Shown here: one piece after another, positions 8,026-31,032 of the stretch
Layout of the letters: the number at the start of each line of letters is the position of its first letter
How positions within the stretch are numbered: the first letter of the stretch is position 1
Origin: Armatimonadota bacterium
GTDB taxonomy: Bacteria; Armatimonadota; Fimbriimonadia; Fimbriimonadales; ATM1
DNA length: 38,891 bases
Reading direction: 5' to 3'
Assembly: GCA_040752255.1 (NCBI GenBank)
Contig: JBFMFD010000001.1
Coordinates: 1-38,891 of the forward strand
Position numbers and translations under genes: made by a program
The notes under the pieces: generated by a model
What the model saw: only the letters and a program-made list of their open reading frames with translations
Database searches by the model: none
Told to the model about the DNA's origin: nothing

Positions 8026-8643
8026 ATGACCTTGGCATTGATAGCCGCGCTCGCCGGGATGAGTCAAGCCGGTGACGTCGTCCTGTGGGACAACGAGCTT
8101 CAGGCAAACGGCGTGTCGGGAATGGCGGTGTCTGGTCCGCGCTTTCCGACGACGCGCGTCGCGGACGACTTCATCGTTCCAGAGGGCCAGAGGTGGCACA
8201 TCAAGCGCTTCACCTACGTTGCAGCCAATGAACCCACGTGGAAGGACGGAGGCATCTCCGAGATCTGCGTGTGGTCTGATAACGGCGGCCGCCCGGACAA
8301 GACGGTAGCAGAAGGAATCTCCCCGCACTCGCGATCGTTTCAAACCGTGATTGATGGGATGGACTGCTACATCTACACGGTGAAGGGGCTTGACATCGTG
8401 TTGCCGCCGGGCCGGTATTGGATCGGCCCGCACCACCCCGAGGCGAGCGGCGAAGGCACCGCATGGTGGATGACGTCAAGCGGCGGCAAACGTGAGCCGG
8501 CGAACCTTCAGGGCTGGGTCTCACACGACTACCAAGACGGTAAAGGCAATTGGACTACACTCGACGGAAACGGCTGGGATGGAGGCTACTGGCATCAAGC
8601 ATTCCAGATCGGGGGCAGGGTTCTCCGGGGAGGCGAGCAATGA
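8026..8643 (+). CDS. Secreted protein of unknown function, paralog 1 of 3 (N-domain only)
   Basis: ATG 8026 is preceded by AAAGGAGG. The signal peptide is MTLALIAALAGMSQAG. It shares DVVLWDN, FP..RVADDF, YWIG.HHPE.SGEGTAWWMTS and WHQAF with the next two genes. The track start at 7942 is a TTG extension. Confidence 0.8.
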   Translation: MTLALIAALAGMSQAGDVVLWDNELQANGVSGMAVSGPRFPTTRVADDFIVPEGQRWHIKRFTYVAANEPTWKDGGISEICVWSDNGGRPDKTVAEGISPHSRSFQTVIDGMDCYIYTVKGLDIVLPPGRYWIGPHHPEASGEGTAWWMTSSGGKREPANLQGWVSHDYQDGKGNWTTLDGNGWDGGYWHQAFQIGGRVLRGGEQ

Positions 8644-9722: not shown

Positions 9723-9744
9723 TCGAGTGCGGAGAAGAGGAACG

Positions 9745-10878
9745 ATGAAGAGGAATACGGCCAACGACGCGAGGCTGTTCAAATGGCGCACGGCTTCGCC
9801 CTGCCTTTCGTTGCTCCCGTTGTTGCTCCTCACGCCAAATCCCGACCAGCGGGATGTGCTGTGGGACAACCACATCATTCTGAAGGGCGACATCACCGGC
9901 CGAGCGATCTCGCCGCCCGCGTTTCCTAGCATTCGAGTTGTGGACGACATTCCGGTCACGATTCGCACTCGCTGGCACGTTACGTCGGCATGGCTGAACA
10001 CGATCGAAGACGGCGCCTGGCGGCCCCGAGAAACGATGGAGCTCTTCGTTTGGAAACAAGCGCCGAGCGGTGGGGGCCCGCACCCCGGGCAGGACGGCAT
10101 CGTCGCGTGGCTGGAAGCCCCGCTTAGGCGTTCGGCCACCGGCGCTACGTACTTCGGTCGGGCGGCATACCTTCATGGCATCGAGGACTTGGACCTTGTC
10201 CTGGGCACTGACGCGAAGTTCGTCGGCTTCAGACACCCTGAAGGCTCCGGCTCGGGGACAGCCTATTGGATGACGAGCGACGGTAAAAACGACCACGGCC
10301 GGGGGCGGTTTCACTACTACAGCCTCGACCAGGGCGGGACCTGGATAAACGCCGGCATCCGGTGGCACAACTCGTTTATCCTCTACGGCTACGAGGAGCC
10401 GTCCGTGCCTCCCTCCTTCTTCGTCATCTCGCGTGGCGCTCACGTCTCCGGCGGGACGATCTCGCTTTCACGCGTGGACGACGATCGACTGGTCATCAGC
10501 CCGCGCCGGCCGATCGAGGTGAATGCGCCGTCAGCCGAGTTGATCGTCAACTCGAATGTTGGACCAAACTCCGGCGCGGCGTGGCTCTCCTTCACCCTGC
10601 TTTCCAACGTAACGGCGCAGGGTGTTGATCAAGAGGTGTGGTTTTGGGATCACGTGAACCGAAGATGGGTGCTGGCGCATTTCCGCCGTGCCGACACCGA
10701 GGAAGTCTTCAGCTTCAGGCGTTATCGAGAAGGCACCGTGTTTGACACCGACCCGACGCTGTTCGTCGCTGCGGACGGGACCGTTACCGCGCGCATCCGC
10801 TGGTTCGACCGGGGCGTGCCTTCGGTCGGCTGGACGGTGCAGGTGAACCAGGCGGGATGGCACGCCGTGCTCAACTGA
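9745..10878 (+). CDS. Secreted protein of unknown function, paralog 3 of 3 (N-domain plus shared C-terminal module)
   Basis: ATG 9745 is preceded by a GAGAAGAGGA RBS. The hydrophobic leader is CLSLLPLLLL. Shared motifs are DVLWDN, FPSIRVVDDI, RHPEGSGSGTAYWMTS and WHNSF. Confidence 0.85.
   Translation: MKRNTANDARLFKWRTASPCLSLLPLLLLTPNPDQRDVLWDNHIILKGDITGRAISPPAFPSIRVVDDIPVTIRTRWHVTSAWLNTIEDGAWRPRETMELFVWKQAPSGGGPHPGQDGIVAWLEAPLRRSATGATYFGRAAYLHGIEDLDLVLGTDAKFVGFRHPEGSGSGTAYWMTSDGKNDHGRGRFHYYSLDQGGTWINAGIRWHNSFILYGYEEPSVPPSFFVISRGAHVSGGTISLSRVDDDRLVISPRRPIEVNAPSAELIVNSNVGPNSGAAWLSFTLLSNVTAQGVDQEVWFWDHVNRRWVLAHFRRADTEEVFSFRRYREGTVFDTDPTLFVAADGTVTARIRWFDRGVPSVGWTVQVNQAGWHAVLN
10402..10878 (+). 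other. Shared C-terminal module (about 158 aa), copy in paralog 3
   Basis: FVISRGAHVSGGTISLSRVDDDRLVISPRRPIEVNAPSAELIV...EVWFWDHVNRRW...VFSFRR...GTVTARIRWFDRGVPSVGWTVQVNQAGWHAVLN. Confidence 0.8.
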
Positions 10879-10911
10879 CCAGGCGGCGTGCGGGCAGGAC
10901 GGCGAAAGCCG

Positions 10912-10917
10912 TATAAT
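10912..10917 (+). promoter_or_regulatory. Perfect -10 box TATAAT, 6 nt upstream of GTG 10924 (leaderless candidate)
   Basis: GCCG-TATAAT-CGGGCC-GTG. A perfect TATAAT is rare in this GC-rich sequence, and there is no SD. Confidence 0.45.
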
Positions 10918-10923
10918 CGGGCC

Positions 10924-12078
10924 GTGACTGGAACGACGATTGCAGCCGCCGACCTAAAGCAAGTCCGCGAGAAGGTGGAGCGGGGCGAGCGGCTCTCCTT
11001 CGACGATGGAGTGCTCCTTTATCGCCATCCCGATCTCACCGCCGTAGGAGCGCTGGCGAACATCGCGCGCGAACGCAAGCACGGCGACAAGGCGTACTAC
11101 GTTCGCAATCAACACATCAACTACACGAACATCTGCAACAAGTTCTGCAAGTTCTGCTCGTTCTATGCCAAGAAGGGCGGGCCGGATCCGTATGAGATGA
11201 GTCTGGAGGAGGTGCGCAACGTCGTCCGCAAGTACAAAGACGTCCGTATCACCGAGATTCACAGCGTCGGCGGCATCAACCCGCGCATCCCATACGAGTA
11301 CTACCTCGACTTCATCCGAGTCATCAAGGAGGAGCGGCCGGGGATTCACGTCAAGGCGTTCACCGCCGTTGAAATCGTGCAGATTGCCGAGGTCGGCAAG
11401 CGGAGCATCGAGGAGACGCTCGCCGACCTGAAGCAGGCGGGGCTGGACAGCCTGCCCGGCGGCGGCATCGAGGTGCTCAGCGATCGAGTTCACCGCGAAC
11501 TGTTCGGGAAGAAGCTGAACGGCGAAGAGTGGAAACGCGTCGCTCGCGCAGCTGCGGCGCTTGGCCTTCCCCAGTACGCGACGATGCTCTACGGTCACAT
11601 CGAGACCATTGAGGAGCGCGTGGACCACTTAGTGCAACTTCGCGAGTTGCAGGATGAAACGCAGCACTTCTTGTGCATGACGCCGCTGTCGTTTCACCCG
11701 GAGAAGACCGAGTTGGAGCACGTGCCGATGCCGACGGGCGACATGGATCTTCGCAACATCGCGGTTACCCGCCTGATGCTCGACAACTTCGACCACATCA
11801 AGAGCTTCTGGATCATGAACACTCCGGCTATCACGCAGATCGCCCTGTGGTACGGAGCGGACGACTGCGACGGCACGGTGCTCGAGTACGAGATTACGTA
11901 TGAACTGGGCAAGTTCGGCCACAAGAGTCAAGCGCTGACACCGGAGAACATGCGCGCCATGATCCGCGAGGCGGGCCGCACGCCCGTCGAAAGGGACAGC
12001 CACTACAAGGAGATTCCTTACGACGAGGCGGAGGAGCGCACGGAGCAGAAGCGCATCCCATTGCCGGTGGTCGGTTAG
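10924..12078 (+). CDS. Radical SAM menaquinone (futalosine pathway) enzyme, MqnE/MqnC family
   Basis: It contains NINYTNICNKFCKFCSFYA (CxxxCxxC radical SAM cluster), GGIEVL, TMLYGHIETIEERVDHLVQLRELQDETQHF and GADDCDGTVLEYEI. I cannot separate MqnE from MqnC, or from CofH-like enzymes, by eye. The start is either GTG 10924 (preferred, see the -10 box) or the track start at 10888. Confidence 0.8.
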   Translation: MTGTTIAAADLKQVREKVERGERLSFDDGVLLYRHPDLTAVGALANIARERKHGDKAYYVRNQHINYTNICNKFCKFCSFYAKKGGPDPYEMSLEEVRNVVRKYKDVRITEIHSVGGINPRIPYEYYLDFIRVIKEERPGIHVKAFTAVEIVQIAEVGKRSIEETLADLKQAGLDSLPGGGIEVLSDRVHRELFGKKLNGEEWKRVARAAAALGLPQYATMLYGHIETIEERVDHLVQLRELQDETQHFLCMTPLSFHPEKTELEHVPMPTGDMDLRNIAVTRLMLDNFDHIKSFWIMNTPAITQIALWYGADDCDGTVLEYEITYELGKFGHKSQALTPENMRAMIREAGRTPVERDSHYKEIPYDEAEERTEQKRIPLPVVG

Positions 12079-17374: not shown

Positions 17375-18493
17375 ATGCTCGATCCACGTGTTACGAAACT
17401 GGCAAACCTCCTGTGCGAGCACAGCACGCGGCTGAAGGACGGGGACAACCTCCTCGTCGAGGCGTTTGACATTCCGCCCGAGTGCGTCGCGGAAGTGGTC
17501 CGCGTAGCGCGAGAGCATGGCGCAAACGTCGTCGCGCAGACCTACTCGACGCGGGTGCAGCGGGCGTTGTTGCTGCACATGAGCGAGCGGAACGCCGACC
17601 TGTGCGCGGAGGTTGACCGTTTTCGTATGGAGAAGATGGACGCCTACATCGCGCTTCGCGGCGCAGACAACGTGATGGAGGCAAGCGATGTGCCGACCGC
17701 CAACATGAAGATGTGGAACCAAAGGTACGGCGTGCCTGTACACTTTGAGGTTCGCGTGCCGAAGACACGCTGGGTCGTGCTCCGCTGGCCTACCCCGAGC
17801 ATGGCGCAGCAGGCGAGCACGAGCACCGACGCCTTCGAGGACTTCTACTTCCGCGTGTGCACTCTCGACTACGGCAAGATGGCGAAGGCGGTCGAGCCGC
17901 TGGTATCGCTGATGGAGCGCACGGATCGCGTTGAGATAACCGGCCCAGGAACCGACCTCTCGTTCAGCATCAAGGACATTCCGGTTGTGCCGTGCGTCGG
18001 CCTGCGGAACATCCCCGACGGGGAGTGCTTCACCGCGCCGGTGCGAGACTCGGTGAACGGGACCCTGCAGTACAACACGGACACGCTTTACCAGGGCAAA
18101 CTGTTCAAGAAGCCGAGACTCACCTTCAAAGATGGTCGCATCGTCGAGGTGAGCGCCGCCGAGATGACCGACGCGATGAACGAGGTGCTCGACACCGACG
18201 AAGGCGCGCGCTACATTGGAGAGTGGAGCCTCGGCTTCAACCCGCACATCCAGCACCCGATGCTCGATACGCTGTTCGACGAGAAGATTGCGGGGAGTTT
18301 TCACATGACGCCGGGGAACGCCTATGACGAGGCGGACAACGGCAACGACAGCGCGGTGCACTGGGACATGGTTTGCATCCAGCGCGCGGAGTACGGCGGG
18401 GGCGAGATTCGGTTTGACGGAGAGGTGATTCGCAAGGATGGCGTATTCGTTCACCCTGACCTTGCGGCTCTGAATCCGCAATCTCTCGCCTAG
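17375..18493 (+). CDS. M29-family aminopeptidase (AmpS/PepS type)
   Basis: LDPRVTKLANLLCEHSTRLKDGDNLLVEA..., GECFTAP, EWSLGFNP, HMTPGNAY, NDSAVHWDMV and GGGEIRFDGEVIRKDGVF are typical of thermophilic metalloprotease M29. Confidence 0.85.
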   Translation: MLDPRVTKLANLLCEHSTRLKDGDNLLVEAFDIPPECVAEVVRVAREHGANVVAQTYSTRVQRALLLHMSERNADLCAEVDRFRMEKMDAYIALRGADNVMEASDVPTANMKMWNQRYGVPVHFEVRVPKTRWVVLRWPTPSMAQQASTSTDAFEDFYFRVCTLDYGKMAKAVEPLVSLMERTDRVEITGPGTDLSFSIKDIPVVPCVGLRNIPDGECFTAPVRDSVNGTLQYNTDTLYQGKLFKKPRLTFKDGRIVEVSAAEMTDAMNEVLDTDEGARYIGEWSLGFNPHIQHPMLDTLFDEKIAGSFHMTPGNAYDEADNGNDSAVHWDMVCIQRAEYGGGEIRFDGEVIRKDGVFVHPDLAALNPQSLA

Positions 18494-20388
18494 CGAGAGG
18501 CCTGCGTGAGCGAAGCAAGCCCCTCGCGGGCGACGTCGTTTTGCGGGTTGATGCTTAGGGCGCGCTGATAGTGAAGCGCCGCGAGGTCTTTGCGCCCTGC
18601 CGCAACCAGGCTTTCGGCAACCTGCACCTCTGCCACGTCCCACGGCGGCAGAACGGAGAGCGCGGCCTCTACTTGCTCGAGGCCTTCGTCCACCGATCCG
18701 GTTCGGATCAGCGAGACGCCCAGGCGATACTGCGAGTTTGCGTCGCCGCTGTTGAGACGAAGCGCCTCGCGCAGGTGCGGAAGGGCGTGCCGGTATAGGC
18801 CGCCGTTGAAGAGATGAAGCCCATAGACGCGGTGCTCATCTGCGGCGGAAGCCTTCGGAATCGTGTTCGCCATCAACCGACCGACGAGCGCCTCGCGCGT
18901 GCTCTCGGTGCGAACGGTGTTGATCGCTTGCACCATCTCCTCCCACGGCTTGGCCGCCAGCGGGTCTGAGGCAACCGCAGAGGCGAGTGTCAGCGCAGCA
19001 CCGGCGGCGATCGCGTCGGCGGTCCTGCGGCACAAGCTCGCCAGCGGCGGAAGCGCGCGAGAGTCATCTGCTGCGGCGTGGTACACATTCGCGATGCGCA
19101 GCAGGGTGCTCGCCGGTGGGGTGTACTCCTGAGCCAACCGCAAGACATCGCCGAGCACTTCAACGGCGAGCGCGTGGTTTCCGAGAGCGGAGAGGTGCTC
19201 GGCAAGGCGCAACGAAACGATCAGCGCTGAATGTTCGCGAACGATGCCGTCCCACCGCCCGGGCCACGGCGCAGCGAGGTTCTCGTTCAGCTGGGTGGCA
19301 TCCTTGAGGCGGCGCGCGTCTGAGACGAGGTCCGCGGGCGCAATCGCGCCGGTGTACATTTTGACGATCCGACCGTTGCTGTTGACCAGGACGCTGCTTG
19401 GAAGAACGATATCCTGCTCGCGATCAACGAGAACGCGCTGCAGAGCCTGATAGAGCGTAAGCATCTGCTGGTCGGCGATTCCGGTGTCGAACCAGAAGCG
19501 GGCCTCTTGTACCTGCTTGCGCGCCGTATCTAGGTCCTTCGGCTCATCAACCGTCAGAGCGACGATGCGGATGCCGGCGGCTTCGAGGGACCTGCGCGCG
19601 CTTTGGAATTCACCCATCTCCTTCTTGCACGCGGCGCACCAGGATGCCCAGAAGTTGATCAGCGTGACACCCTCACCCACAAGCGGCAGCACGCCGCCTT
19701 CAAGCGACCGAGCACTCAGAATGGGCATGCGCGGCGGGTAGGCGAGGGCGACCGAGCCGGTGGGCGAGAAGTGAGCCTCTGGGATGCGCTCCTCCGTCCA
19801 AGAGAGCGGCTCGTCGAACGGTTGCGCCTCGGCGCCCGCGGCTCCCTCCGTGAGAACGTAGCGTCGGTTGGGTCGGATGCCCTCAAACGTCTGCGTTACT
19901 CCGCTGGGCCAGCGCACGCGTAGGGCGACCGGCGCATTGTGGCTTCCCAACCCGAAGTGGAGCCACTTAGTTCCCTGGGCAAGGAAGCCCGTGCCTGCTC
20001 TCACCGTGTCGTGCAGGGGCTTGCCGGCGCCGAGGACCTCGACCCGCGCGCCGACGGCGTCCTTGTTCGACTGCGTTCCTACAAGGCGGACGGCGATAGA
20101 GTTGCCGCCCGTCTCAGTCTGGTTGAGCAGCAGGCGGACTTGCGGGCCGGTGCGGTTTCGGAGCCAGACATCGAGGTCTCCGTCTCCGTCCCAGTCAACG
20201 AACACGACGGCTCGCGCATCGTCGGAATACAACAACCCGGACACGTAGGAGACGTCGTAGAAGCGTCCGGTGCCGGTGTTGATGAGGGCGACGTTCGGCT
20301 CGTGCCCGCTCCAGGAAAGCCCCTGCCTGAGTTGTGCCTGCAACGCGGACCAACTGGTCATGTACGCGGTCGGGTCTTGCCCCTTCAC
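18490..20388 (-). CDS. C-terminal part of a CRTAC1/ASPIC-UnbV-type protein: UnbV/ASPIC module, TlpA-like thioredoxin (WCAAC) and TPR repeats
   Basis: SWSGHEPNVALINTGTGRFYDVS...VDWDGDGDLDVWLRNRTGPQVRLLLNQ...NSIAVRLVGTQSNKDAVGARVEV is the UnbV_ASPIC signature. INFWASWCAACKKEM (19627..19638 encodes CAAC) is a redoxin motif. The C-terminus is TPR-like. The listed GTG start has no SD, and the ORF is in frame with 20425..22200. Confidence 0.8.
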   Translation of the reverse strand: MKGQDPTAYMTSWSALQAQLRQGLSWSGHEPNVALINTGTGRFYDVSYVSGLLYSDDARAVVFVDWDGDGDLDVWLRNRTGPQVRLLLNQTETGGNSIAVRLVGTQSNKDAVGARVEVLGAGKPLHDTVRAGTGFLAQGTKWLHFGLGSHNAPVALRVRWPSGVTQTFEGIRPNRRYVLTEGAAGAEAQPFDEPLSWTEERIPEAHFSPTGSVALAYPPRMPILSARSLEGGVLPLVGEGVTLINFWASWCAACKKEMGEFQSARRSLEAAGIRIVALTVDEPKDLDTARKQVQEARFWFDTGIADQQMLTLYQALQRVLVDREQDIVLPSSVLVNSNGRIVKMYTGAIAPADLVSDARRLKDATQLNENLAAPWPGRWDGIVREHSALIVSLRLAEHLSALGNHALAVEVLGDVLRLAQEYTPPASTLLRIANVYHAAADDSRALPPLASLCRRTADAIAAGAALTLASAVASDPLAAKPWEEMVQAINTVRTESTREALVGRLMANTIPKASAADEHRVYGLHLFNGGLYRHALPHLREALRLNSGDANSQYRLGVSLIRTGSVDEGLEQVEAALSVLPPWDVAEVQVAESLVAAGRKDLAALHYQRALSINPQNDVAREGLASLTQASR

Positions 20389-20396
20389 CGGCGACT

Positions 20397-20427
20397 GCGC
20401 CGCGACGCGGCGCCAGAAGAAGCTTCA
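20397..20427 (-). other. In-frame TGA (20425..20427) followed 11 nt later by a GC hairpin (20397..20413)
   Basis: The mRNA sense reads ...GAC GAC TTG TGA AGCTTCTTCTG GCGCCGCGTCGCGGCGC AG.... The hairpin has a 7-bp GC stem and a GUC apical loop. The reading frame is continuous on both sides (...TNTDADDL*SFFWRRVAAQSPVKGQDP...). Confidence 0.6.
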
Positions 20428-22200
20428 CAAGTCGTCGGCGTCGGTGTTGGTGATGAAGCCGTTCGGGCTGATGATATCCAGCCAGCCGTCGTTGTTCAGG
20501 TCGCCGAAGTGGGCGCCCCAGGCGAAGCGCCCCATCTCCGTGCGCGTCTCCATGGTTACATCGCTGAACGAGCCGTCGCCACGATTCTCGAAGAGACTGT
20601 TGCCGCGAGCGAAGTACTGAAGGTTCCTCGTGAACCCGCCGGTCGGCTCGAAGGCTCGTTGATACGTTACGCGGTTTCCTGCGGACGACCACATGTTCGT
20701 GACGTACAGGTCCATCAAGCCGTCTCGGTTGTAGTCTCCCCAAGAGACGCCCATCCCCGCGGCCTGATCCTGAACGCCTGCTTCTTCTGCACGCTCAACG
20801 AAGCGTCCGCCCTCGTTCACATACAGCTGATTCGGGCCAAAGTCGTTGGCGACGTAAAGATCTTGGTCGCCGTCGTTGTCGAAGTCTTCCCAAGCCGCGG
20901 CGAACGTCTGCCGATTGTTGTTGACGTTCAAGCCGACATCGTTCGTTACGTTTCGGAAGCGGAACGCACCGTCGTTCTTCAGCAGCGTGTTGGGCAGGCC
21001 CTGGTCAGAGTCGAAGATAGCCGCGCCGGTCGAGTTCGCCTGGCCTGAAGAGGTGTACTCGCAGAGATAGATGTCCACGAAGCCGTCTCGATCGTAGTCC
21101 GCGGCGGCCATTGAGGTCAACATGATGACTCGGTAGCGAGCCATCGGCTCGAACTTGCCGGTGCCGTCCCCTTTCATGAACAAGACGTGCGACACGGTGC
21201 CGACGACCAGGTCTTGGTTGCCGTCGTTGTCGAGGTCGAGGATCAGAGCGCTCGCCGTGTCGTTGAGCAGGTCTGCGCCGGACTCTCTCGAGGCGTCCCG
21301 TAGCGTTCCGGCGCCGGTGCGGAGGTACAGACGGTTCGGCAACCCGCCCGGCTGACACACGTACAGGTCGTCGAGGCCGTCGTTGTTGACGTCGCCAAAG
21401 GCGAAGCCGTAGTGCCCTGCGAGTGTGCCGCCCATTGAAAAGTCAAGTCCACCCCACCATCGCTCGAAGCCTTGATTGAGTTGCTCAAAGCTCTCGACAT
21501 CTTTGAAGGCGACCCTTGTAACCTCGCGCAGAAGCGGACGGGCGCGGCTGATCTCCTCGAACTCTTGCACGGTGAGGGACTTCAGCACGGGCTTATCGGG
21601 CCCTTTGGAAACGTCCCATGTGGCGGTCCACTTCGCGTTCTGCTGGACCACCCTGGTTGGTGAGCGCCCAGCGCCGAGATAGAGGAGGGTCGTTGTGCCT
21701 TCGGTTCCGACGACGTCGCTTCGGACTATCTTGAACTTGATCATGTCGACCGTCTCGCCGAGCGCCGCTCGCAGTTCGTTCCACGCGGATGCGACCGCGT
21801 CGGGACCCGTACCGGAGACGGGCGAGGCGGTGCCGTGGTGGGCGGTGATGCCGTCGCGCGCCCATGCGACTTCCACCCTCTTGGGCCTGAGTTCGGTCAG
21901 AGAAGCGCCGTCGGCGACAAACTCGGAGATCTCGCCACCCGAGGCGACCGCCTTGTCAATGGAGGAAAGCGCCTTACCCGCCGCGCTGTTCAGCGCCTCG
22001 CCCGCGCCCAAGTCGGCATCTTTCTGAGGGTCGAAGTAGGTGACCTCTTCGGCGATCCGCTCGTCCAACTTGACGTCAACAGCACCGAGCTCCTCGGGTC
22101 GGTACTCGACCGACGAGGTCTGAGCCTGGTCGCCGCCCGGAGAGCACGCCCCCCAGATCGCCGCCGACAGGAAGAAAACAGCCAGCTTGCGTGCCTGCAA
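20425..22200 (-). CDS. N-terminal part of the same CRTAC1/ASPIC-type protein: lipoprotein signal plus FG-GAP/VCBS repeats
   Basis: TTG start. MQARKLAVFFLSAAIWGAC is lipobox-like. The repeats read GDVNNDGLDDLYV, LDLDNDGNQDLVV, ADYDRDGFVDIYL, EDFDNDGDQDLYVAN, GDYNRDGLMDLYVTN and GDLNNDGWLDIISPNG. The ORF ends at an in-frame TGA. Confidence 0.85.
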   Translation of the reverse strand: MQARKLAVFFLSAAIWGACSPGGDQAQTSSVEYRPEELGAVDVKLDERIAEEVTYFDPQKDADLGAGEALNSAAGKALSSIDKAVASGGEISEFVADGASLTELRPKRVEVAWARDGITAHHGTASPVSGTGPDAVASAWNELRAALGETVDMIKFKIVRSDVVGTEGTTTLLYLGAGRSPTRVVQQNAKWTATWDVSKGPDKPVLKSLTVQEFEEISRARPLLREVTRVAFKDVESFEQLNQGFERWWGGLDFSMGGTLAGHYGFAFGDVNNDGLDDLYVCQPGGLPNRLYLRTGAGTLRDASRESGADLLNDTASALILDLDNDGNQDLVVGTVSHVLFMKGDGTGKFEPMARYRVIMLTSMAAADYDRDGFVDIYLCEYTSSGQANSTGAAIFDSDQGLPNTLLKNDGAFRFRNVTNDVGLNVNNNRQTFAAAWEDFDNDGDQDLYVANDFGPNQLYVNEGGRFVERAEEAGVQDQAAGMGVSWGDYNRDGLMDLYVTNMWSSAGNRVTYQRAFEPTGGFTRNLQYFARGNSLFENRGDGSFSDVTMETRTEMGRFAWGAHFGDLNNDGWLDIISPNGFITNTDADDL

Positions 22201-22307: not shown

Positions 22308-23741
22308 TTACCAGGTAGTCCGGATGGTGTACCTCACGACCTTCTGCTCGTCGGGCTGTAGGCGCAAGCTGTAGCGGAAGGTGTTCGAGTCCATCTTCTC
22401 GCTCTGCTGCGACTCGGAGACGATCTCCCAGTCGCTCCAGCCGTGCTCGATGACCTCGACGGTCTCGGCGACCTTCTTGCGATTTCGAACTGTAATTTCG
22501 AAGGTCTCCTCAACGACGTTCGACGCGATTCGCCGGAAGGATGTCCGCTTGCGCTCTGCGACGATGTCGAAGGCGTCGCCGATGTAGAGGCGAATCTTCT
22601 CTTCGCGCGGCGTGTGGTCGATCTGGTCCTCTCCGAGCATCTGCACCTGCCCTGAGGTATCCCTCTTGTAGACCCTAACCTTGCCCTTAGGCAGGGGCAT
22701 GCCGAGTCGGTTCTGGTCGCTGTTTGCAACCTCGACAACGATGTTGGCTTTGACGTTCGGATCTGTTGCGTATCCCTCACCGGGGCGATACGACCTGCCG
22801 TACCCCCTCCAGACCGACTGCTGCCCTTCGACGATGAGCCGCTTGGTTACCGCGGCGCCCTGCGCGGAGAGCAGGCTGATCTGCTTCGTCTCTCGGTTCC
22901 GCACGGTAGCCGGTCGCCCGAGCGTGTAGAGGTGATACTCGAACAGGGTCTCCTCGGCGAAGCCGAGGTCCGCTCGTGCCTGTTCCGGCATTCCTGCCCC
23001 GCCGCGACCTCCGAACTGGCGCGCCGGTTGGATGCGCCGCACGTCGCCGGCGATCAGTTTGAGCGTTGCGTTGTTGTAGGTCGCGCCGGACTGGTTGTTG
23101 ATGGTGACCCAGCCGTTGAGGTCCGCCATCGTGTCGTCGGCGCTCAGCGTGAGCACGTAGTCCGCCGACCAAGTGATGTTCTCTGTCAGGTAGGCGAGTT
23201 CGATGTTCCTTGCGCCACCGGTCGGCGCGAGGATGTCCCACATCAGGGTGGGCTTACTGATGAGCCCCTCTGGAAGTTCGAGCACTTCGATCGTTCCCGT
23301 TGGGTTGAGGATGAACCTGCCGTCATCCGTTTGAAGCACCAGGCCGCTGTACGTTTGCATCGCGCCACTCCCGGTGTTGACGACTCTGCCGGGAGCGCTC
23401 AGAAGAACGCCCTCCGTCGTTATCATCTGTCCGGAATCGAGCAGTTGCCGAAGGCGGATGCGCTTCCCGATAGACTTGGCAAGGATGCTCTCCGGCGACA
23501 GCAGGTCATATTGGTAGTTCTGTTCCAGCACTTCGATCGGCCCACCGGTGAGCGGTCGAATCGTTACGCTGGTCGGGTCAATTCTTTCGGCGACATCCTC
23601 GATTCGCAACTCCTGCCTGCCCTGCTGCAGGTTGACGGAGCGGACCTCTTTGACCAAGCCGAAGTTGGCGTTGTAGATGGTGATTTCGACTGATTGCGGC
23701 GCGGCCGCCACAATCAGTCCGGCGATCGTCAGTGTCAGCAT
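22308..23741 (-). CDS. DUF4139-like secreted protein
   Basis: An AAGGAGGAG RBS lies upstream. The N-terminus reads VEITIYNANFGLVKEVRSVNLQQGRQELRIEDVAERIDPTSVTIRPL...VLEQNYQYDLLSPESILAKSIGKRIRL. The C-terminal ...TFEITVRNRKKVAETVEVIE... pattern matches my memory of the DUF4139/DUF4140 family. Confidence 0.6.
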   Translation of the reverse strand: MLTLTIAGLIVAAAPQSVEITIYNANFGLVKEVRSVNLQQGRQELRIEDVAERIDPTSVTIRPLTGGPIEVLEQNYQYDLLSPESILAKSIGKRIRLRQLLDSGQMITTEGVLLSAPGRVVNTGSGAMQTYSGLVLQTDDGRFILNPTGTIEVLELPEGLISKPTLMWDILAPTGGARNIELAYLTENITWSADYVLTLSADDTMADLNGWVTINNQSGATYNNATLKLIAGDVRRIQPARQFGGRGGAGMPEQARADLGFAEETLFEYHLYTLGRPATVRNRETKQISLLSAQGAAVTKRLIVEGQQSVWRGYGRSYRPGEGYATDPNVKANIVVEVANSDQNRLGMPLPKGKVRVYKRDTSGQVQMLGEDQIDHTPREEKIRLYIGDAFDIVAERKRTSFRRIASNVVEETFEITVRNRKKVAETVEVIEHGWSDWEIVSESQQSEKMDSNTFRYSLRLQPDEQKVVRYTIRTTW

Positions 23742-23803: not shown

Positions 23804-24946
23804 CTAGTACACCGCGAGCGTGGGGTCAACTTCCCGCGCGTAGGCGTTGATTCCGCCCTCGACGTTGTAGACCCTCTTGAATCCCCGCCGCATCAGGTAC
23901 TCAGCCACCTCCTCGCTCCTCGCGCCTACTCGGCAAAGAACGAGGATCTCGTGGGTCGGGTCGAGTTCCCCGATGCGTTGAGGGATCTCGTCCATTGGGA
24001 TATGACGACACGGCTCCAGTTTCGATACAAGCAACTCCTCCGGCTCGCGCACATCGAGCAGCACGGCACCCGCGGCGAGCCGCTCCCGCACGGCGCCGGG
24101 CGGGACGCTCTGGACGCGCGTAAAGGTTTGCGTTCGCGGCGGAGAGCACGAAACGATCGTGTCCTGAAGGCTGCGGATGGTCGGCGTCTCGCCGCAGACC
24201 GGGCAAGACGGGTCCCGCTCGACGTCGAAGCGCCGCGCCTCTGCCTTCAGAGCGTCGAAGACAAGCAGCCTTCCGACAAGGGGCTCGCCCACGCCGAGCA
24301 GCAACTTGAGCACCTCGTTCCCTTGGATTGCGCCGAGGATGCCGGGCAGCACACCGAGCACGCCTGCCTCGGCGCAACTCGGCACGCTCCCGGGTGGGGG
24401 AGGTTCTGGATAAAGGCAACGGTAGCACGGCCCGCCCGGCGCGGCAAACACCGACGCCTGACCTTCAAACCGGAAGATGGAAGCGTACGCGTTCGGCTTA
24501 CCGAGCATCACGCAGGCGTCGTTGACGAGGTAGCGAGTTGTGAAGTTGTCGGTACCGTCGGCAACCACGTCGTATTCTCGGATGAGGTCGAGGGCGTTAT
24601 CAGCCGAGAGGTGCGCGTCGTGCTCGACGATTTCGATGTACGGGTTGTAGGCGCGCAACTTCTCTGCGGCGCTGACGGTCTTCTTCCTGCCGATGTCTGT
24701 GTGAAGGTGAAGCGTCTGTCGCTGCAGGTTTGAGGCGTCCACCTCGTCGAAGTCCACCAGCCCGATGCGACCGACGCCCGCGCCTGCGAGGTACCAAGCC
24801 ACCGGCGAGCCGAGCCCACCGAGGCCCACGACGAGCGCGGAAGAAGCCTTCAGTCGCTCCTGCCCTTCGATGCCGACCTCGGGAAGGATGAGATGTCGTG
24901 CATAGCGCGACCGCTCCTCGGCGTTCAGCGGTGGGCGGTTGGTCAC
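23804..24946 (-). CDS. moeB: MoeB/ThiF-family adenylyltransferase fused to a C-terminal rhodanese domain (MoeZ/MoeBR type)
   Basis: RYARHLILPEVGIEGQERLKASSALVVGLGGLGSPVAWYLAGAGVGRIGLVDFDEVDASNLQRQ. It has Zn CxxC pairs (CYRC, CPVC) and the rhodanese loop LVLCRVGARS. GTG start at 24946. Confidence 0.92.
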   Translation of the reverse strand: MTNRPPLNAEERSRYARHLILPEVGIEGQERLKASSALVVGLGGLGSPVAWYLAGAGVGRIGLVDFDEVDASNLQRQTLHLHTDIGRKKTVSAAEKLRAYNPYIEIVEHDAHLSADNALDLIREYDVVADGTDNFTTRYLVNDACVMLGKPNAYASIFRFEGQASVFAAPGGPCYRCLYPEPPPPGSVPSCAEAGVLGVLPGILGAIQGNEVLKLLLGVGEPLVGRLLVFDALKAEARRFDVERDPSCPVCGETPTIRSLQDTIVSCSPPRTQTFTRVQSVPPGAVRERLAAGAVLLDVREPEELLVSKLEPCRHIPMDEIPQRIGELDPTHEILVLCRVGARSEEVAEYLMRRGFKRVYNVEGGINAYAREVDPTLAVY

Positions 24947-24960: not shown

Positions 24961-25566
24961 GTCTCACGGTATCCGGTTGTGCTGGCGAGCGAAAGCCCCC
25001 GCAGGCGCGAGTTGCTGTCGAAGATACTCGGGGAATTCGACGTGGTGCCCTCGGGTGTTCCCGAGGATGTGCCTGAGCGGGGGGAGCCGGAGCGCATCGC
25101 GAAACGCCTCGCAAGGGCGAAGGCGCTCGGCGTGGCGATAGCACGGCCGGGCGCGCTGGTCATCGGCGCCGACACGGTTGTCGCAATCGGTGACTTGCTG
25201 CTCGCGAAGCCGGGGACGCGCGAGGACGCCGTGCGGATGCTGATGACTCTCAGCGGGCGCGAGCACACGGTTACCACCGGCGTCGCGCTCGTTTGGCCCA
25301 GTGCGGATGGGAAGTCGGCCGGCAAGCACGCTTTCGCGGACACTGCTCGCGTTCGGTTCCGCCGCATCTCCAGCGATGAAGCGGCCGCCTACGTCGAGAT
25401 CGGCGAGCCGATGGACAAGGCCGGAGCGTATGCGATACAGGGCGGAGCGGCGCGGTTCGTCGAGTCGGTGGAGGGCGACACTGACACGGTCATAGGACTG
25501 CCGGTCGCCGCCCTGCGAGAAGCGCTGCTGCGGCTCCGTCTGGCGGTCGAGTTCGCCGAGCGTTAG
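24958..25566 (+). CDS. maf: Maf-family nucleoside triphosphate pyrophosphatase (septum formation protein)
   Basis: VVLASESPRRRELL, VIGADTVV, LAKPGTREDAVRMLMTLSGREHTVTTGVAL and DKAGAYAIQGGAARFVESVEGDTDTVIGLP. The track start at 24898 is an extension into moeB. Confidence 0.92.
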   Translation: MVSRYPVVLASESPRRRELLSKILGEFDVVPSGVPEDVPERGEPERIAKRLARAKALGVAIARPGALVIGADTVVAIGDLLLAKPGTREDAVRMLMTLSGREHTVTTGVALVWPSADGKSAGKHAFADTARVRFRRISSDEAAAYVEIGEPMDKAGAYAIQGGAARFVESVEGDTDTVIGLPVAALREALLRLRLAVEFAER

Positions 25567-27731
25567 CCGCCGGGGGGTGGCGGGTCGCTGAACCGCCTCC
25601 GAGCGCGCTCCCTCGCTTGCTGCATTTGCCGGCGCAGTTCCTCGGGCAGGGAGTCGAACGGTCCGAACTCCGCTTTGGGGTCCGAAGTCGCGCCGCCGGC
25701 CTTGACGGTAAAGATGTCGTTCCGCGTGAGCGCAATCTCGAATGAGTACGCCTCGAGGGTGGCTGCTCTGAAACCGGAGAGCGCAACCGAGTCATCCCCT
25801 TCGAACACCTCAGCGAAGCCGTACGCTTCCGGGGACATTGCGAACGAGAACGCGGGCTGGCCGCCGAACGCCAGTTGCGCCTCCACGCCTGGGCGTACCC
25901 CGTGCTGGAGGCGAATCTCGGACCCGGACGGGATACCGGCTGGAAAGCGTTGCGTGAACTCGTCGTCGGGACGCTCGCCTTCCGAGAACATATCCTCCAT
26001 TGCGCTTTGCATCGCGGCGGAGAAGAAGTCATCCATGTAGAGGTTCAGAACGAGCGGCTCGTCTTCCACGAGGTAGAGGTACCGGTCAAGGTGCCCGCGT
26101 GCGTCGTTCGGTAGCAGGTCGCGCGTAACCGTCCGCCCCTGCTTCAGCGCCTCCTTCAACGTCGGCGAGAGGCTGCCCCACATGCGACAGAACGAGATGC
26201 CGGGCAGGTCAAGCCCGCCCTCCAGCAATGTGCCCAGGCTGAACATTGCGAACATGATCGCGGGCGAGGTCGCCTGCCGATCGGTGAGCCGCAGGATAGC
26301 GGAGGAGAACGAGTCGAAAGTGATGCCGCCGAGTCGCTCCTTCTCTTCGAGTAGCCGCTTCAGAACGCTGCGAGGAACCGTTGTTGCGCGGGCGAGCGCG
26401 TAGGGCGACGTGCGAACCGTGATCCAGGGACCGGCGTACGACCAGCCGGCGCCCATGGACCTTGCCATCGAATCGAGGAACAGCGCGGGGCTGTCGGCAG
26501 ACACTCCGAAGGTGCCGAACCCGCCCATCGCATGCGCGTCGTACGCATCGGAGATGAAGCAGACGTCCATGGCCTTTGCGAATTCCACCATTACGTCGCC
26601 AAACAGCTGCAGCGGCTCGGAGGAGCCGAACAGGTTCTTCAGCATGTCCACCATGACGAAGTCATCCTCGCCGCTCGAGGCGAGGACGAACTTCTTCACC
26701 GATTCGGGGGCGGACCAGGCTTCCTCGAAGCGCGCAGGGAGGCCCTCAGGCCGTTGCGGCTTGGCTTCGGCAGCATCGGGCTCTTCGCCAAACATGTCAA
26801 ACGCGTAGCCAAACAAGCCCTGCTCCTCCCGGTGGAGAATCGTGCCGTTCCCGCTCAGGAATTGGAAAGAGACGTCGGGGCCGGGCTGTCGCATTAGAAA
26901 GATGAAGCCTCCTCCCGCCCGTTTCACAACCGCACGAACGGCGCGTACTGCTTGCGGGTCGAAGCGGGGAGCTCCCTCCGGCGCATCGGGCATCTCCACA
27001 TCGTCGAAGATGGCGTCGTTGAACTGTGCAATCTCCTGGATGAGAGCCGGCAACTGGTCGATTACGGTGCGCGGCATCGGGCGCTGCAGTGCGGTCGGGT
27101 GCGTTGAGTACACCAGCTTGCCGAGCCGTTCGAGGTCAAGCGCGTCGCGCGTGCTCATCTGGGCGACGAGGAGAGCCTCCAGCCGCGTGCCGGGCGACAC
27201 CTGTTCGCTGAGATCCATGAGCCTGTTCCAGAGACGATAGCTCTCTTCGCTTTCGTCGTCAGGCATTTCGGCGATCTTCTTCTGCAACTCAGCGAGCTCG
27301 GCGCGCAGCTTTGCAAGGGCCTCCGGCGTACTTGTTTGGAGACGCTCTAGCGCCGCCTTCTTCGCTTGCTGGAACGGCTCGAGGATCAACTGCTCCAACT
27401 CGCGCCTTTCCTGGGCGGCAGCTTCGGCGGACTGCGCGAGCGTGTAGCCTTCGTCCGTCTTGCGCCACTCCCACCCGAAGTGCAGCGCGATGCGCGCGAG
27501 CACCTCGTGCGCAGGTCGCTCCTTCGCATAGAGCGTGATCAAGTCCTCGCGCAAGTCGTCTTGGATGCCGAGAGCGACGCCCGTGCGTTGCGCGAGGTCG
27601 TCGAGGACCTCTTTCATCGTCTTGACGGAGGCTTCGATCGTGACCGGCGGCTTCAGCCGGTCGTCGAGGGAGAGGTCCGCCTGAGGAGCGGCGGACGCCA
27701 GTGCAAGGGCGCAGCCCAGTAGGATAGTCAT
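25563..27731 (-). CDS. Large secreted protein of unknown function, paralog A (STN-like N-terminal domain plus coiled coil)
   Basis: An AAGGAG RBS lies upstream and the signal peptide is MTILLGCALALASAAPQA. The protein is collinear with 28337..30424. Shared segments include RPAHEVLARIALHFGWEWRKTDEGYTL, VYSTHPTALQRPMP, ISDAYDAHA, WITVRT...LARATTVPR and a basic C-terminal tail ending in prolines. Confidence 0.8.
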   Translation of the reverse strand: MTILLGCALALASAAPQADLSLDDRLKPPVTIEASVKTMKEVLDDLAQRTGVALGIQDDLREDLITLYAKERPAHEVLARIALHFGWEWRKTDEGYTLAQSAEAAAQERRELEQLILEPFQQAKKAALERLQTSTPEALAKLRAELAELQKKIAEMPDDESEESYRLWNRLMDLSEQVSPGTRLEALLVAQMSTRDALDLERLGKLVYSTHPTALQRPMPRTVIDQLPALIQEIAQFNDAIFDDVEMPDAPEGAPRFDPQAVRAVRAVVKRAGGGFIFLMRQPGPDVSFQFLSGNGTILHREEQGLFGYAFDMFGEEPDAAEAKPQRPEGLPARFEEAWSAPESVKKFVLASSGEDDFVMVDMLKNLFGSSEPLQLFGDVMVEFAKAMDVCFISDAYDAHAMGGFGTFGVSADSPALFLDSMARSMGAGWSYAGPWITVRTSPYALARATTVPRSVLKRLLEEKERLGGITFDSFSSAILRLTDRQATSPAIMFAMFSLGTLLEGGLDLPGISFCRMWGSLSPTLKEALKQGRTVTRDLLPNDARGHLDRYLYLVEDEPLVLNLYMDDFFSAAMQSAMEDMFSEGERPDDEFTQRFPAGIPSGSEIRLQHGVRPGVEAQLAFGGQPAFSFAMSPEAYGFAEVFEGDDSVALSGFRAATLEAYSFEIALTRNDIFTVKAGGATSDPKAEFGPFDSLPEELRRQMQQARERARRRFSDPPPPGG

Positions 27732-28336: not shown

Positions 28337-30424
28337 TCAGTGGCGCGGGGGCGGAGCGCGGCGCGCCCTCTCCGCCTCGATGGCGCGCCGCAGCCGCTCG
28401 CCTAGGGGGCCGGGAAGGCGCTCAAGCGACTCGTATCGCACCGACACGTCCACAGTCGCGCCTCCGAAGACGATGTGGATGACCGGGCCACTCGGTAAAG
28501 CAACGCGGAGGAGATTGACTTCGAGTTCCGCGGGATGATACTGGTATCGAGTGTGCCCTCGTTCTGTCGCAGTAACCCATAGCCGAGCCGCCGACTCCAC
28601 GCTCCAAATGACGCGAATCCTAGATTCCCCCTCGACATGGGCCACCCCACCAGCGGCATCGGAGGTCAAAGTCAGAAGTGTGTCGGCTGGCATCCCATTA
28701 GGAATGACTTGAGTCCCTTCAATGTCCCGCTGTGAATCGTCCGGTGGGGTAGGAACACGCTCGCTCCAACGAAACAAATACGTCAGTAGCTCAAAGTGGT
28801 CGCAGTCCTCCAGGCCGTGGAGAAGGAAGAAGCGGTTCCACTCACGCTTCGTCCGTTCGGGAAGGCTTCCCCAGCGAATCTCGTACCGAGTGCCGACGGT
28901 GTCGTGCATACTCCTGCCCAGGGCTTGCCAGCCGCGTGCGAATGCCGCGGTCGCGCGATTGACCTCGAACAAACTGCTACTCATCGTTAGTTGCCAGGGG
29001 AGCACACCCCTAGTCACCTGAACGCTCGCCAATCCCGCTACGAATTCAGCCATTGCACTGAATTCCACGGCCCCCCGCTGAACGACGCGGGCGAACGGGT
29101 AGAGATGCTCGCGTGGCACGGTAGCCGCCCGCACAAGGGGCCAGTTCTCGGTGCGAAACGTGAGCCAGCCGTCAGTCAGTTCAACCGTGGCCCCCCTGGC
29201 GTGCGAGAGGGCTTCGAAAAACCCCTCGACAGTATCCAGGGAACTCCCAGCGGCATGCAGCGGCAAGACGATGTGAGCGTCATATGCGTCTGAGATGAGG
29301 TTTACTCCGACCCTCGATGCGGCAGCCAGCATTGCCGATGTCACCGGCTCGAGGGGCTCGACCGAGACGAGTCCTGGGTACAAGCTCGCTCGTAGCTCTG
29401 AGCGCTCGCTGTCGGAGAACGGACTCATTCCGACAAGAATCCGTCTGATGCTCGTCGGGGGATTCCACGGCTCGCGAAACGCCTCCGGCAGGTCCTTTGG
29501 CAGCCGGCGCTCCGCATCTGGGGGACCCTCTTCGTGCGTTGGCCCTTGTGGTTCATCAAACGGTACAGGATCTGCTAACCCTTCAAGCAGCAGTCCATCC
29601 GGTCCGAACCACGCGGTGCGCAGTTTCACCCCTTCAGGCCCCAGCGCACCCACTTGAACGCCCTCGACGGCAACCCGGACGGCGACGACCGAGGGTGGGC
29701 TAACCTGACGATCAGGTTGCTCGACGCGCAGCAATGCGAGTTCTCCAAGCAGGGGTAGCTCGGCCATCACTGCCGGTGGAAGCGCTCGCTGGGCGGCGGT
29801 CGGGTGGGAGGAGAATACCATCTTCCCGTCGCTCTCGATCCGTGCAAAGTCGCTTTCTGTCAGCGAACACAGAAGCAACGCGCCAAGCCAAGAGTCACCG
29901 TCCAAATAGGGAGACAGCTCCCACCACTCATCCCGCAAAGCCCATCGTTTATCGATGTCGGTCTCCACAGCCAGGGCAGCGACGAGCTCCCGCGCACGGG
30001 CGAGCATCCGCTCGGCCCCCGACACCTGCGCCAGGTACCGCCTCGCGTCCTCCTGTGCATCGAAGTAAGGCTGGAGGAGTTGTTTGCGCAACGCTTTTTC
30101 TTCGGCAACTCGCGACTCCGCCGGCCGATACAGCCGGTAACCGTCGTCCTTCTCCTCCCACGCCCAACCGAAGTGGCGCGCAATACGCTCCATCACTTCG
30201 TGTGCCGGGCGGGATGCCACTCGCAGCGTCGCCAAGTCTTGCCGTATGTCGTCCGCCGCCTCGATCCGGACGTTGGTCTTGCCGGATAGGTCCATTAGGA
30301 TCGTCTCGATGCTCTTGGCGGGATGCTCGAGCGAAACCGCAACCTGCAACCTCGGGTCATCCCGAAGGTCCACCCCCAGAGACGAACCGAGCATCGTTGC
30401 CGCGAGCGCAAGCGCGGACAGCAT
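28337..30424 (-). CDS. Large secreted protein of unknown function, paralog B (STN-like N-terminal domain plus coiled coil)
   Basis: The signal peptide is MLSALALAATMLGSSLG. It contains RPAHEVMERIARHFGWAWEEKDDGYRL, VFSSHPTAAQRALP, ISDAYDAHI, WLTFRT...LVRAATVPR and the C-terminal tail RRAIEAERARRAPPPRH. Confidence 0.8.
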   Translation of the reverse strand: MLSALALAATMLGSSLGVDLRDDPRLQVAVSLEHPAKSIETILMDLSGKTNVRIEAADDIRQDLATLRVASRPAHEVMERIARHFGWAWEEKDDGYRLYRPAESRVAEEKALRKQLLQPYFDAQEDARRYLAQVSGAERMLARARELVAALAVETDIDKRWALRDEWWELSPYLDGDSWLGALLLCSLTESDFARIESDGKMVFSSHPTAAQRALPPAVMAELPLLGELALLRVEQPDRQVSPPSVVAVRVAVEGVQVGALGPEGVKLRTAWFGPDGLLLEGLADPVPFDEPQGPTHEEGPPDAERRLPKDLPEAFREPWNPPTSIRRILVGMSPFSDSERSELRASLYPGLVSVEPLEPVTSAMLAAASRVGVNLISDAYDAHIVLPLHAAGSSLDTVEGFFEALSHARGATVELTDGWLTFRTENWPLVRAATVPREHLYPFARVVQRGAVEFSAMAEFVAGLASVQVTRGVLPWQLTMSSSLFEVNRATAAFARGWQALGRSMHDTVGTRYEIRWGSLPERTKREWNRFFLLHGLEDCDHFELLTYLFRWSERVPTPPDDSQRDIEGTQVIPNGMPADTLLTLTSDAAGGVAHVEGESRIRVIWSVESAARLWVTATERGHTRYQYHPAELEVNLLRVALPSGPVIHIVFGGATVDVSVRYESLERLPGPLGERLRRAIEAERARRAPPPRH

Positions 30425-30573: not shown

Positions 30574-31032
30574 CTAACGGTCGGTAATCACCTGCCACCC
30601 CGCCATGTCAACGTGCGCTCGCCAGCCTGCGCTCGTGATGCCCCTGTCGTGGAATCCGAGGCGAAGCCGCATGGCGCGGCTACCCGCCTGGATGAACCGC
30701 TCCGGCGATTCCAGAACGGTGAACGTGAGCATCGAGTCCTCGCGCGTGGCTTCCTCCTCGCCGACGGTGACCCAGCGGCCGTTCGCGAAGTCGAACAGTT
30801 CGACGCGAACTACCGCAGGCCCCTCGGTTGTGGAGACCTCCACAACCGCCCGCAAGCCGTGCGGCTGATCCACCGGCGATGAGCCGGCCACTTCGACTTC
30901 GGCGGATGCGGCGGCGATCTCGGTGGGTCGGCGCGCTTCGATGCGCATCCGCCGGTCGTCGCTTCCAAACAGGTCCTCAAGCCCACCATCCAGGCGCACG
31001 CCGCGCGTGATGCTGAACTCACTCGGTCGCAC
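30574..31032 (-). other. Shared C-terminal module (about 152 aa), copy in the cupredoxin-propeller protein
   Basis: FSITRGVRLDGGLEDLFGSDDRRMRIEARRPTEIAAASAEVEV...VELFDFANGRW...MLTFTV...SRAMRLRLGFHDRGITSAGWRAHVDMAGWQVITDR. It aligns position by position with 9255..9722 and 10402..10878. Confidence 0.8.

Follow-up and report, generated by a model that had tools for sequence, protein, structure and literature searches.

Described cases of bacterial selenocysteine (Sec) insertion provide the nearest parallel to the locus considered here, with the fdhF gene of E. coli as the main point of comparison. In fdhF, a selenocysteine insertion sequence (SECIS) forms a hairpin whose stem starts 11 nucleotides (nt) from the UGA and whose apical loop, GGUC, occupies nt 22-25; the element was checked against 5,419 E. 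coli genomes, with at least 99% identity in 5,413 of 5,420 matching records, under fdhF annotated as selenocysteine-containing. A second parallel is the CRTAC1/ASPIC-UnbV family of propeller proteins, for which, to our knowledge, neither the bacterial members nor vertebrate CRTAC1 has a known biochemical activity. The locus described here lies in a 38,891-nt stretch of DNA (the window) from an Armatimonadota bacterium, comprising positions 1 to 38,891 of contig JBFMFD010000001.1 (assembly GCA_040752255.1). Two minus-strand open reading frames (ORFs) share one frame, 22200..20425 (591 amino acids (aa), TTG start) and 20388..18490 (632 aa, GTG start), and between them lie a single TGA (20427..20425) and 12 sense codons, SFFWRRVAAQSP, followed by GTG. 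The junction DNA reads GAC GAC TTG TGA AGC TTC TTC TGG CGC CGC GTC GCG GCG CAG TCG CCG GTG, and translation of 22200..18490 through the TGA yields a product of 1,236 residues. From the sequence and its relatives, we conclude that 22200..18490 is one gene for an exported, probably lipid-anchored protein of this length, in which UGA592 most likely encodes Sec, a reading to which we assign a probability of about 0.88.

A preliminary description of this stretch had proposed Sec recoding of a single CRTAC1/ASPIC-type gene, citing the shared frame across the TGA and 12 codons, a 7-bp GC hairpin exactly 11 nt past the TGA, FG-GAP repeats followed by an UnbV/ASPIC module that continue across the junction, a CxxC thioredoxin domain and a resemblance to the fdhF SECIS. 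These features are all present. The hairpin, GCGCCGC-GUC-GCGGCGC, lies at 20413..20397; a Pfam propeller blade follows the TGA and precedes UnbV_ASPIC; the motif WCAAC sits in an AhpC-TSA/Redoxin domain; and the 11-nt spacing and, in the family consensus, the GGUC loop are shared with fdhF. The proposal itself is strengthened by conservation of the TGA, covariation in the SECIS, a TGC relative with a fossil SECIS and a tRNA-Sec gene close to one family member, each considered below.

Conservation of the UGA and of the downstream hairpin

The TGA is a property of a family rather than of one genome. Among the 120 best protein relatives of a junction-spanning query, 41 (55-99% identity) cover only the upstream 43% of the query and end at ...[DN]L, immediately before the TGA; relatives 99%, 95% and 93% identical to the window protein terminate at the same residue, and the closest named relative, 85% identical, comes from an Armatimonadetes metagenome-assembled genome (MAG). 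The remaining relatives of this query carry a sense codon at the column and read across the junction. At the DNA level, 80 loci from species-representative genomes were collected (by record title, 32 Planctomycetota, 35 Verrucomicrobiota, 11 Acidobacteriota and 2 other or without a phylum label). These contain 85 occurrences of the column, of which 84 are TGA, one is TCG (Ser) and none is TAA or TAG; the TGA never leaves the frame, and S-[FV]-[FY]-W-R-[QR]-V follows it without exception. Ten further TGA loci, mostly marine by sample name, came from scanning metagenomes with sense-codon homologs as seeds, and the arrangement of TGA, in-frame continuation and SFFWRQVV is common to 95/95 TGA-bearing homologous loci. 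Since TGA is the ordinary stop of 9 of the 25 other window ORFs, the genetic code is standard, and code reassignment was ruled out as an explanation.

Candidate stretches for the TGA form number more than 500. Several genomes carry three or four copies of the gene, with TGA in every paralog, and some loci carry tandem pairs. The HKST-UBA30, UBA7890 and B47T1L10 MAGs have 3-4 TGA copies on different contigs, and tandem paralogs also occur at loci L005, L046, L067, L068 and L078. One locus with the typical TGA form (L057, CAYTLW010000001.1) is labelled 'uncultured Enterobacteriaceae bacterium', whereas the gene is known elsewhere from Planctomycetota-Verrucomicrobiota-Chlamydiota (PVC) and Acidobacteriota lineages; the taxonomic label of this MAG is probably wrong.

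The hairpin is conserved together with the TGA. A covariation test was performed on 77 distinct sequences, each consisting of the TGA plus 33 nt, with 500 column shuffles. Counting from the U of the UGA, the helix between nt 15-20 and nt 26-31 is paired in 98.1% of cells. Changes on both sides are seen at three of its six pairs (28 cells), and 0/500 shuffles reach the observed pairing or covariation. Shifting the partner by ±1 to 3 nt causes the pairing to collapse. The family consensus is GCGNCA-GGUCG-UGNCGC, with the loop GGUC(G) at nt 21-24, and the window hairpin has a GUC triloop with its G-U at nt 22-23. Pair 18:28, the most informative one, is seen as A:U, G:U, G:C, C:G and U:A. One of its partners is the unconstrained third position of an Arg codon (CGN), the other is position 1 of an S/P/A/T codon (NCG), and its covariation therefore indicates that RNA pairing dictates the amino acid that follows W-R-Q-V-V.

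Comparison between TGA and sense-codon forms separates selection on the RNA from selection on the peptide. The six-pair helix is found in 80/87 TGA forms versus 1/40 sense-codon forms. For the same WRQVV peptide, the TGA forms fix GTC (66/69), GTG (68/69) and NCG (66/69), whereas the third bases of sense-codon forms are spread over all four nucleotides at both valines (first Val G25/A6/C5/T2; second Val C9/T11/G12/A6). In the spacer between the UGA and the stem, positions 1 and 2 of each codon are nearly fixed across 81 distinct sequences and the third varies synonymously (nt 6 C28/T53, nt 9 C60/T20); because only third codon positions vary, this segment is evidently translated. An Rfam scan around the TGA returned chance-level matches only, and no bacterial SECIS model applies to this element. 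Taken together, these comparisons show the hairpin to be an RNA element that selection maintains in association with the TGA.

Sense-codon homologs, redox cysteines and decoding

When 1.84 billion cluster representatives were searched exhaustively with HMMER, the query being the 120 residues after the TGA, about 48 full-length sense-codon relatives were recovered, 38-44% identical. The residue at the column in these representatives is E (about 14), S (9), D (9), A (about 7), M (3), C (3), Q (2), N (2), R (1) or G (1), and in 39 sense-codon metagenome loci it is N (21), S (8), G (4), A (4) or M (2). The supposition that no Cys homolog exists was thus ruled out by three TGC forms. One of them, L161 (P0424; ENA contig k133_1489322, column near nt 2131), combines TGC with 6/6 hairpin pairs and the codons GTC GTG GCG, and also retains the CxxC and an ERK-C cysteine. 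Its hairpin is a fossil SECIS one mutation away from TGA, left by what appears to be a very recent Sec-to-Cys conversion. The other two, L162 (P0494) and L163 (P0442), have TGC codons with decayed hairpins (3/6 and 2/6 pairs). The corresponding JGI contig, Ga0366744_1002595, holds three family genes in a row, two of which are Cys forms. The preliminary description had proposed that Cys at the aligned column would support recoding and that the lack of a conserved Cys would refute it. The first expectation is borne out by the three TGC forms, but they are rare (3 of about 48 representatives, with E, S, D, A and N dominating), and because Cys is so rare at this column the second is too strict.

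The presence of Sec is associated with additional cysteines, which were called with regular expressions, columns anchored by hidden Markov models and pairwise BLASTP. The redoxin CxxC is intact in 86/89 Sec forms. Without Sec it is intact in 1/36 loci and in 7 of about 48 cluster representatives, and most of these sense-codon forms retain only the second Cys of the motif, or neither. A further Cys, within an SWSG-x-ERN-C motif about 50 residues after Sec, is present in 59/76 Sec forms, 0/33 sense-codon loci and 3/3 Cys forms. Soil (Acidobacteria-like) non-Sec homologs (L081-L124, P0010-P0227) keep a redoxin-like domain in which the CxxC has decayed to xxxC or xxxx, which suggests loss of redox function in a retained fold.

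The decoding machinery is represented by a tRNA-Sec gene at one locus, L044, from a Planctomycetia MAG (CAWEKV010000003.1). The gene lies at 13822-13921, 3.4 kb downstream of the TGA, with an M28 peptidase gene between it and the family gene. ARAGORN assigns it the anticodon tca, and it scores 67.1 bits against Rfam RF01852 (gathering score 47). It is the sole tRNA-Sec among 8 tRNAs found in the window and 160 loci (L001-L160). A tblastn search for selD and selA over the window and the same 160 loci, with E. coli queries, gave no match, a negative that is uninformative because the search covered gene flanks only.

Several observations weigh against Sec at UGA592 or against its coupling to the redoxin domain. 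The 51-nt window around the hairpin folds like shuffled sequence (z = -0.17 versus dinucleotide shuffles), and the pattern of a TGA, 11 nt and a hairpin is expected by chance 0.12 times per window. As the preliminary description had cautioned, the window hairpin by itself is weak evidence; its significance comes from comparison with relatives. None of selA, selB, selD and tRNA-Sec was found in the 38.9-kb window, the part of the genome that the search covered. In most sense-codon homologs the column holds E, S, D, A, N, M or G and not Cys, so that the position must be dispensable in those proteins. The window protein itself has Val, not Cys, at the ERN-C position. Finally, the association between Sec and CxxC has exceptions (P0139, P0367, P0373, P0395, P0418 and P0471), and it may rest on few evolutionary events, because the Sec and sense-codon groups form largely separate clades.

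The alternative that best withstands these data is read-through of the UGA without Sec, either as hairpin-stimulated decoding by a near-cognate Trp, Cys or Arg tRNA, or with the hairpin acting only as a switch, in which regulated termination would determine how much of the protein is truncated and how much is full-length. The range of residues tolerated at the column in homologs is compatible with such decoding. Bacterial Sec insertion is also usually inefficient, and a truncated product probably exists in any case. Against this, the stop is only ever TGA, and the hairpin agrees with the SelB-binding fdhF element in where its stem lies, in its 11-nt spacing and in its GGUC loop. The TGA-to-TGC relative with its fossil hairpin, the co-occurrence of the CxxC and ERN-C cysteines with TGA and the tRNA-Sec gene adjacent to the L044 copy also argue for Sec, and we consider read-through without it improbable.

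Gene continuity, fold and a proposed redox relay

A less probable alternative is that the locus comprises two genes, one for a propeller and one for an UnbV-redoxin-TPR protein, with re-initiation after the UGA, for example at a GTG within the hairpin or at 20388. This is how public annotation presents such loci, naming a 'VCBS repeat-containing protein' and an 'ASPIC/UnbV domain-containing protein', and a GTG does occupy nt 25-27 in most family members. That GTG is missing, however, from the window and about 12 other members, and whichever start is considered, the codons that separate it from the TGA conserve the peptide SFFWRQVV and vary synonymously at third positions; sense-codon homologs run through this peptide without interruption. 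The two parts always share a frame and the stop that divides them is always TGA. For the downstream half, 116 of 120 database relatives begin at scattered internal Met or Val codons, which identifies them as truncated gene calls made by programs restarting after a stop. The presence of an FG-GAP blade downstream of the UGA further implies that the upstream product alone would be an incomplete propeller; the Sec column itself falls in an inter-blade connection about 37 residues longer than in the ordinary CRTAC1-family protein P0058 (BLASTP gaps of 25 and 12). Together these features make independent re-initiation very unlikely. The preliminary description had reached the same view of the downstream ORF, and it had also noted that homologs naturally encoded as two genes would speak against a single gene. 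No such arrangement emerges, because homologs are called as two genes solely on account of the TGA.

The last alternative, a sequencing or assembly error or a recently inactivated pseudogene confined to this window, had been left open by the preliminary description and would be hard to dismiss from a single window whose hairpin folds no better than shuffled sequence, but it is excluded for practical purposes by conservation of the same TGA column in 95 independent loci, which span many assemblies and no fewer than three phyla, by intact protein conservation on either side of the TGA, by the shared end point of the 99%, 95% and 93% identical relatives, and by several genomes with multiple paralogs, every one of them TGA.

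The fold was approached through a structure model of P0178, a full-length sense-codon homolog with Asp at the column that is 34-38% identical to the window protein and serves here as its proxy. The model has a predicted local distance difference test score (pLDDT) of 85.6 and a predicted template modelling score (pTM) of 0.87. The Sec-column residue starts a helix (642-652), which is followed by a second helix (661-676) and then by the next blade. Its best matches in the PDB are murine CRTAC1 (9etn_A) for the propeller and UnbV part, with E = 1.4e-25 and a template modelling (TM) score of 0.71 (target-normalised) over 639 columns, and ResA, TlpA, CcmG and StoA for the redoxin domain, with TM scores of 0.7-0.8. 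A PDB sequence search with the propeller/UnbV region alone gave no match, and 9etn was reached by a profile alone. By analogy with the model, Sec would start an alpha-helix, one of two that make up an insert between the final blades of the propeller. The signal peptide, the lipobox seen in the window clade and the ResA/TlpA-like fold together suggest an extracytoplasmic location.

UGA592 is most likely decoded by the standard bacterial route, in which SelB with Sec-tRNA(Sec) binds the hairpin that starts 11 nt past the UGA; the G-U of the apical loop is presented as far from the UGA as it is in E. coli fdhF. The redox mechanism is more tentative. Sec592 would form a redox-active centre at the N-terminus of a helix on a CRTAC1-like propeller. 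After reacting with its substrate, it could form a selenenylsulfide with the SWSG-ERN-C cysteine or directly with the redoxin CxxC, and the fused ResA/TlpA-like domain would re-reduce it. Recycling might proceed via the ERN-C cysteine in most members and directly via the CxxC in the window clade; the partner in the window protein would be the CxxC because this protein has no Cys in the motif. Binding of partners would fall to the TPR region. We regard this Sec-to-CxxC relay, in which Sec592 is recycled by the fused redoxin domain, as a proposal with about even odds.

Features of the locus and relation to described systems

Positions of the gene parts are collected in Table 1. Over the whole protein, the Pfam scores are 147 bits for PF13517, 69 bits for PF01839 and 61 bits for PF07593; in the redoxin domain they are 41-42 bits for AhpC-TSA, 36 bits for Redoxin and 29-30 bits for Thioredoxin_8. 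Each of these scores is above its cut-off.

Table 1. Features of the putative selenoprotein gene in window coordinates (CDS, coding sequence; residue numbers refer to the 1,236-residue read-through product).
Feature	Position	Strand	Basis or remark
CDS part 1, residues 1-591	20428..22200	-	ORF and translation; TTG start
Signal peptide, lipobox-like ...AAIWGA|C19	22200..22144	-	Lipobox kept at N-termini of closest relatives
N-terminal domain, family-specific, no Pfam match	within CDS part 1	-	
FG-GAP/VCBS beta-propeller blades	within CDS part 1	-	Pfam FG-GAP_3 132.9 bits in 6 stretches; FG-GAP 76 bits
In-frame UGA, inferred selenocysteine codon, residue 592	20425..20427	-	TGA column of the family
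11-nt spacer AGC UUC UUC UG, coding S-F-F-(W)	20414..20424	-	Between UGA and hairpin
SECIS-type hairpin, nt 15-31 from the U of UGA; 7-bp stem, GUC loop	20397..20413	-	
CDS part 2, residues 593-1236, TAG stop at 18492..18490	18490..20424	-	Stop-free translation
FG-GAP-like propeller blade, residues 633-679	20164..20304	-	FG-GAP_3 27.4 bits vs cut-off 26.9 (post-TGA residues 41-87)
UnbV_ASPIC, residues 715-781	19858..20058	-	PF07593 61.4-61.8 bits vs cut-off 23.4
ResA/TlpA-like thioredoxin-fold (redoxin) domain, residues 844-954	19339..19671	-	Pfam AhpC-TSA, Redoxin, Thioredoxin_8
W-C855-A-A-C858 motif	19638..19627	-	CAAC verified by translation
C-terminal TPR region, residues about 993-1232	18505..19224	-	Several Pfam TPR families; same architecture in most relatives

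The window is otherwise ordinary chromosome, with genes for DAHP synthase, an aminotransferase, FliK/FlgE, a radical-SAM CofH/MqnC-like enzyme and UvrA, and further genes for Maf, an E2 acyltransferase, GH127 and an amidohydrolase. An M29 peptidase gene is convergent with the putative selenoprotein gene and overlaps it by 4 bp. Directly upstream, on the same strand and after a gap of 107 nt, lies a DUF4139 gene (22308..23741, minus strand), which is not a conserved neighbour elsewhere. No conserved gene neighbourhood was found among 79 loci, where the largest neighbour cluster, of LTD/CotH giant proteins, occurs at 11 and DUF1501 at 7. Two genes upstream is a ThiF-rhodanese fusion, a MoeZ/MoeB-like sulfur-carrier activating enzyme (23804..24946, minus strand), which has no in-frame TGA. 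The MoeB and rhodanese families include known selenoproteins.

Four large ORFs of the window (390-773 aa) have coding-like GC content at third codon positions and no Pfam match at E <= 1e-5: 25563..27731, 28337..30424 and 30574..32895 on the minus strand and 8550..9722 on the plus strand. A second pair of same-frame ORFs, 9688..10878 and 10888..12078 (plus strand, 396 aa each), is split by a TGA (10876..10878) and three codons; the first has no Pfam match and the second is the radical-SAM CofH/MqnC-like enzyme. Recoding at 10876..10878 was considered and rejected; with a GTG start lying three codons past the stop and no conserved hairpin, the site looks like a usual boundary between two genes.

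In public annotation (NCBI, JGI), each of these genes appears as two entries: a 'VCBS repeat-containing protein', which is truncated, and an 'ASPIC/UnbV' or 'TPR repeat' protein that lacks its N-terminal part. By this splitting, hundreds of genes in PVC and Acidobacteriota lineages that are abundant in the environment are likely mis-annotated, and the selenoproteomes of these phyla, in which some genomes carry three or four copies, would be underestimated. If Sec does work with the built-in CxxC domain, this would be a new kind of extracytoplasmic selenoenzyme and would hint for the first time at an enzymatic function for the CRTAC1/ASPIC-UnbV fold; a Sec that is coupled to its own thiol reductase domain suggests redox catalysis and singles out particular residues for mutagenesis. 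The family also forms a series, from TGA with a SECIS through TGC with a fossil SECIS and TGC without one to other residues with a decayed CxxC, that can be used to study gain and loss of Sec dependence. A SECIS embedded in a conserved peptide motif should in addition provide a useful test case for selenoprotein predictors.

The family does not appear in the catalogues that were consulted. A table of 119 prokaryotic selenoprotein families and subfamilies (May 2026, PMC13188914) has no FG-GAP, VCBS, UnbV or CRTAC1 entry, and the window protein reaches no NCBIfam selenoprotein model. Neither the deep-Sep paper, main text and supplements included, nor the main text of the BSepDB paper or of the GOS paper mentions the family. 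A literature search, incomplete in coverage, returned no paper linking selenocysteine to FG-GAP, VCBS, UnbV, ASPIC or CRTAC1, so that a prior description may exist. As judged from sequence, this appears to be a new selenoprotein family with a recoding mechanism of the canonical bacterial type. In the broader picture, the gene would belong to a large group of multidomain, exported selenoproteins that no catalogue lists as yet; its members would be spread over Planctomycetota, Verrucomicrobiota, Acidobacteriota and Armatimonadota-like bacteria, often as several paralogs per genome, each with a Sec on a helical propeller insert that works with a built-in ResA/TlpA-like CxxC domain. We hold this picture to be about evenly balanced.

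As in fdhF-type recoding, the UGA of the family is in frame, the hairpin lies within the coding sequence and starts 11 nt after the UGA, the apical loop is GGUC and compensatory changes keep the stem, with the G-U at nt 22-23 here and at nt 23-24 in fdhF. In contrast to fdhF, the family stem is a short GC helix of 6-7 bp without a bulged U, and SelB binding is putative. The hairpin is also superimposed on a conserved peptide, W-R-Q-V-V-S/P/A/T, and its host protein is unrelated to formate dehydrogenase.

The architecture of FG-GAP repeats followed by PF07593 is that of the CRTAC1/ASPIC-UnbV proteins; NCBI calls full-length relatives 'CRTAC1 family protein', and the P0178 model matches the murine CRTAC1 crystal structure 9etn. 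However, the family carries an insert of about 55 residues, helical in the model, between the last blades, bearing Sec-SFFWRQVV, and has in addition an extra domain at the N-terminus and, fused at the C-terminus, a TPR region as well as the redoxin domain. The 119-family table (PMC13188914) lists no selenoprotein of the CRTAC1 family.

The redoxin domain resembles ResA, TlpA, CcmG and StoA in its thioredoxin fold with W-C-x-x-C and in its exported context. Here, however, it is one domain of a 1,236-residue protein and not a stand-alone membrane-anchored protein, and its client would presumably be the protein's own Sec centre. The NCBIfam equivalog cut-offs are not reached (ResA 44.6 versus 170, TlpA 37.3 versus 230 and StoA 36.3 versus 210), and by these scores the ResA/TlpA similarity is at the domain level only.

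Selenium-using thioredoxin folds that are likewise exported have been described as UGC-containing TlpA and as the 'ResA-like WAxxUGC motif-containing protein' of NF041054. The window protein is not a member of the latter, since its 36.7 bits fall far below the cut-off of 300. In those proteins Sec replaces the first Cys of the redox motif itself, whereas the window protein has an all-cysteine WCAAC motif, with the predicted Sec lying 263 residues upstream, in the propeller.

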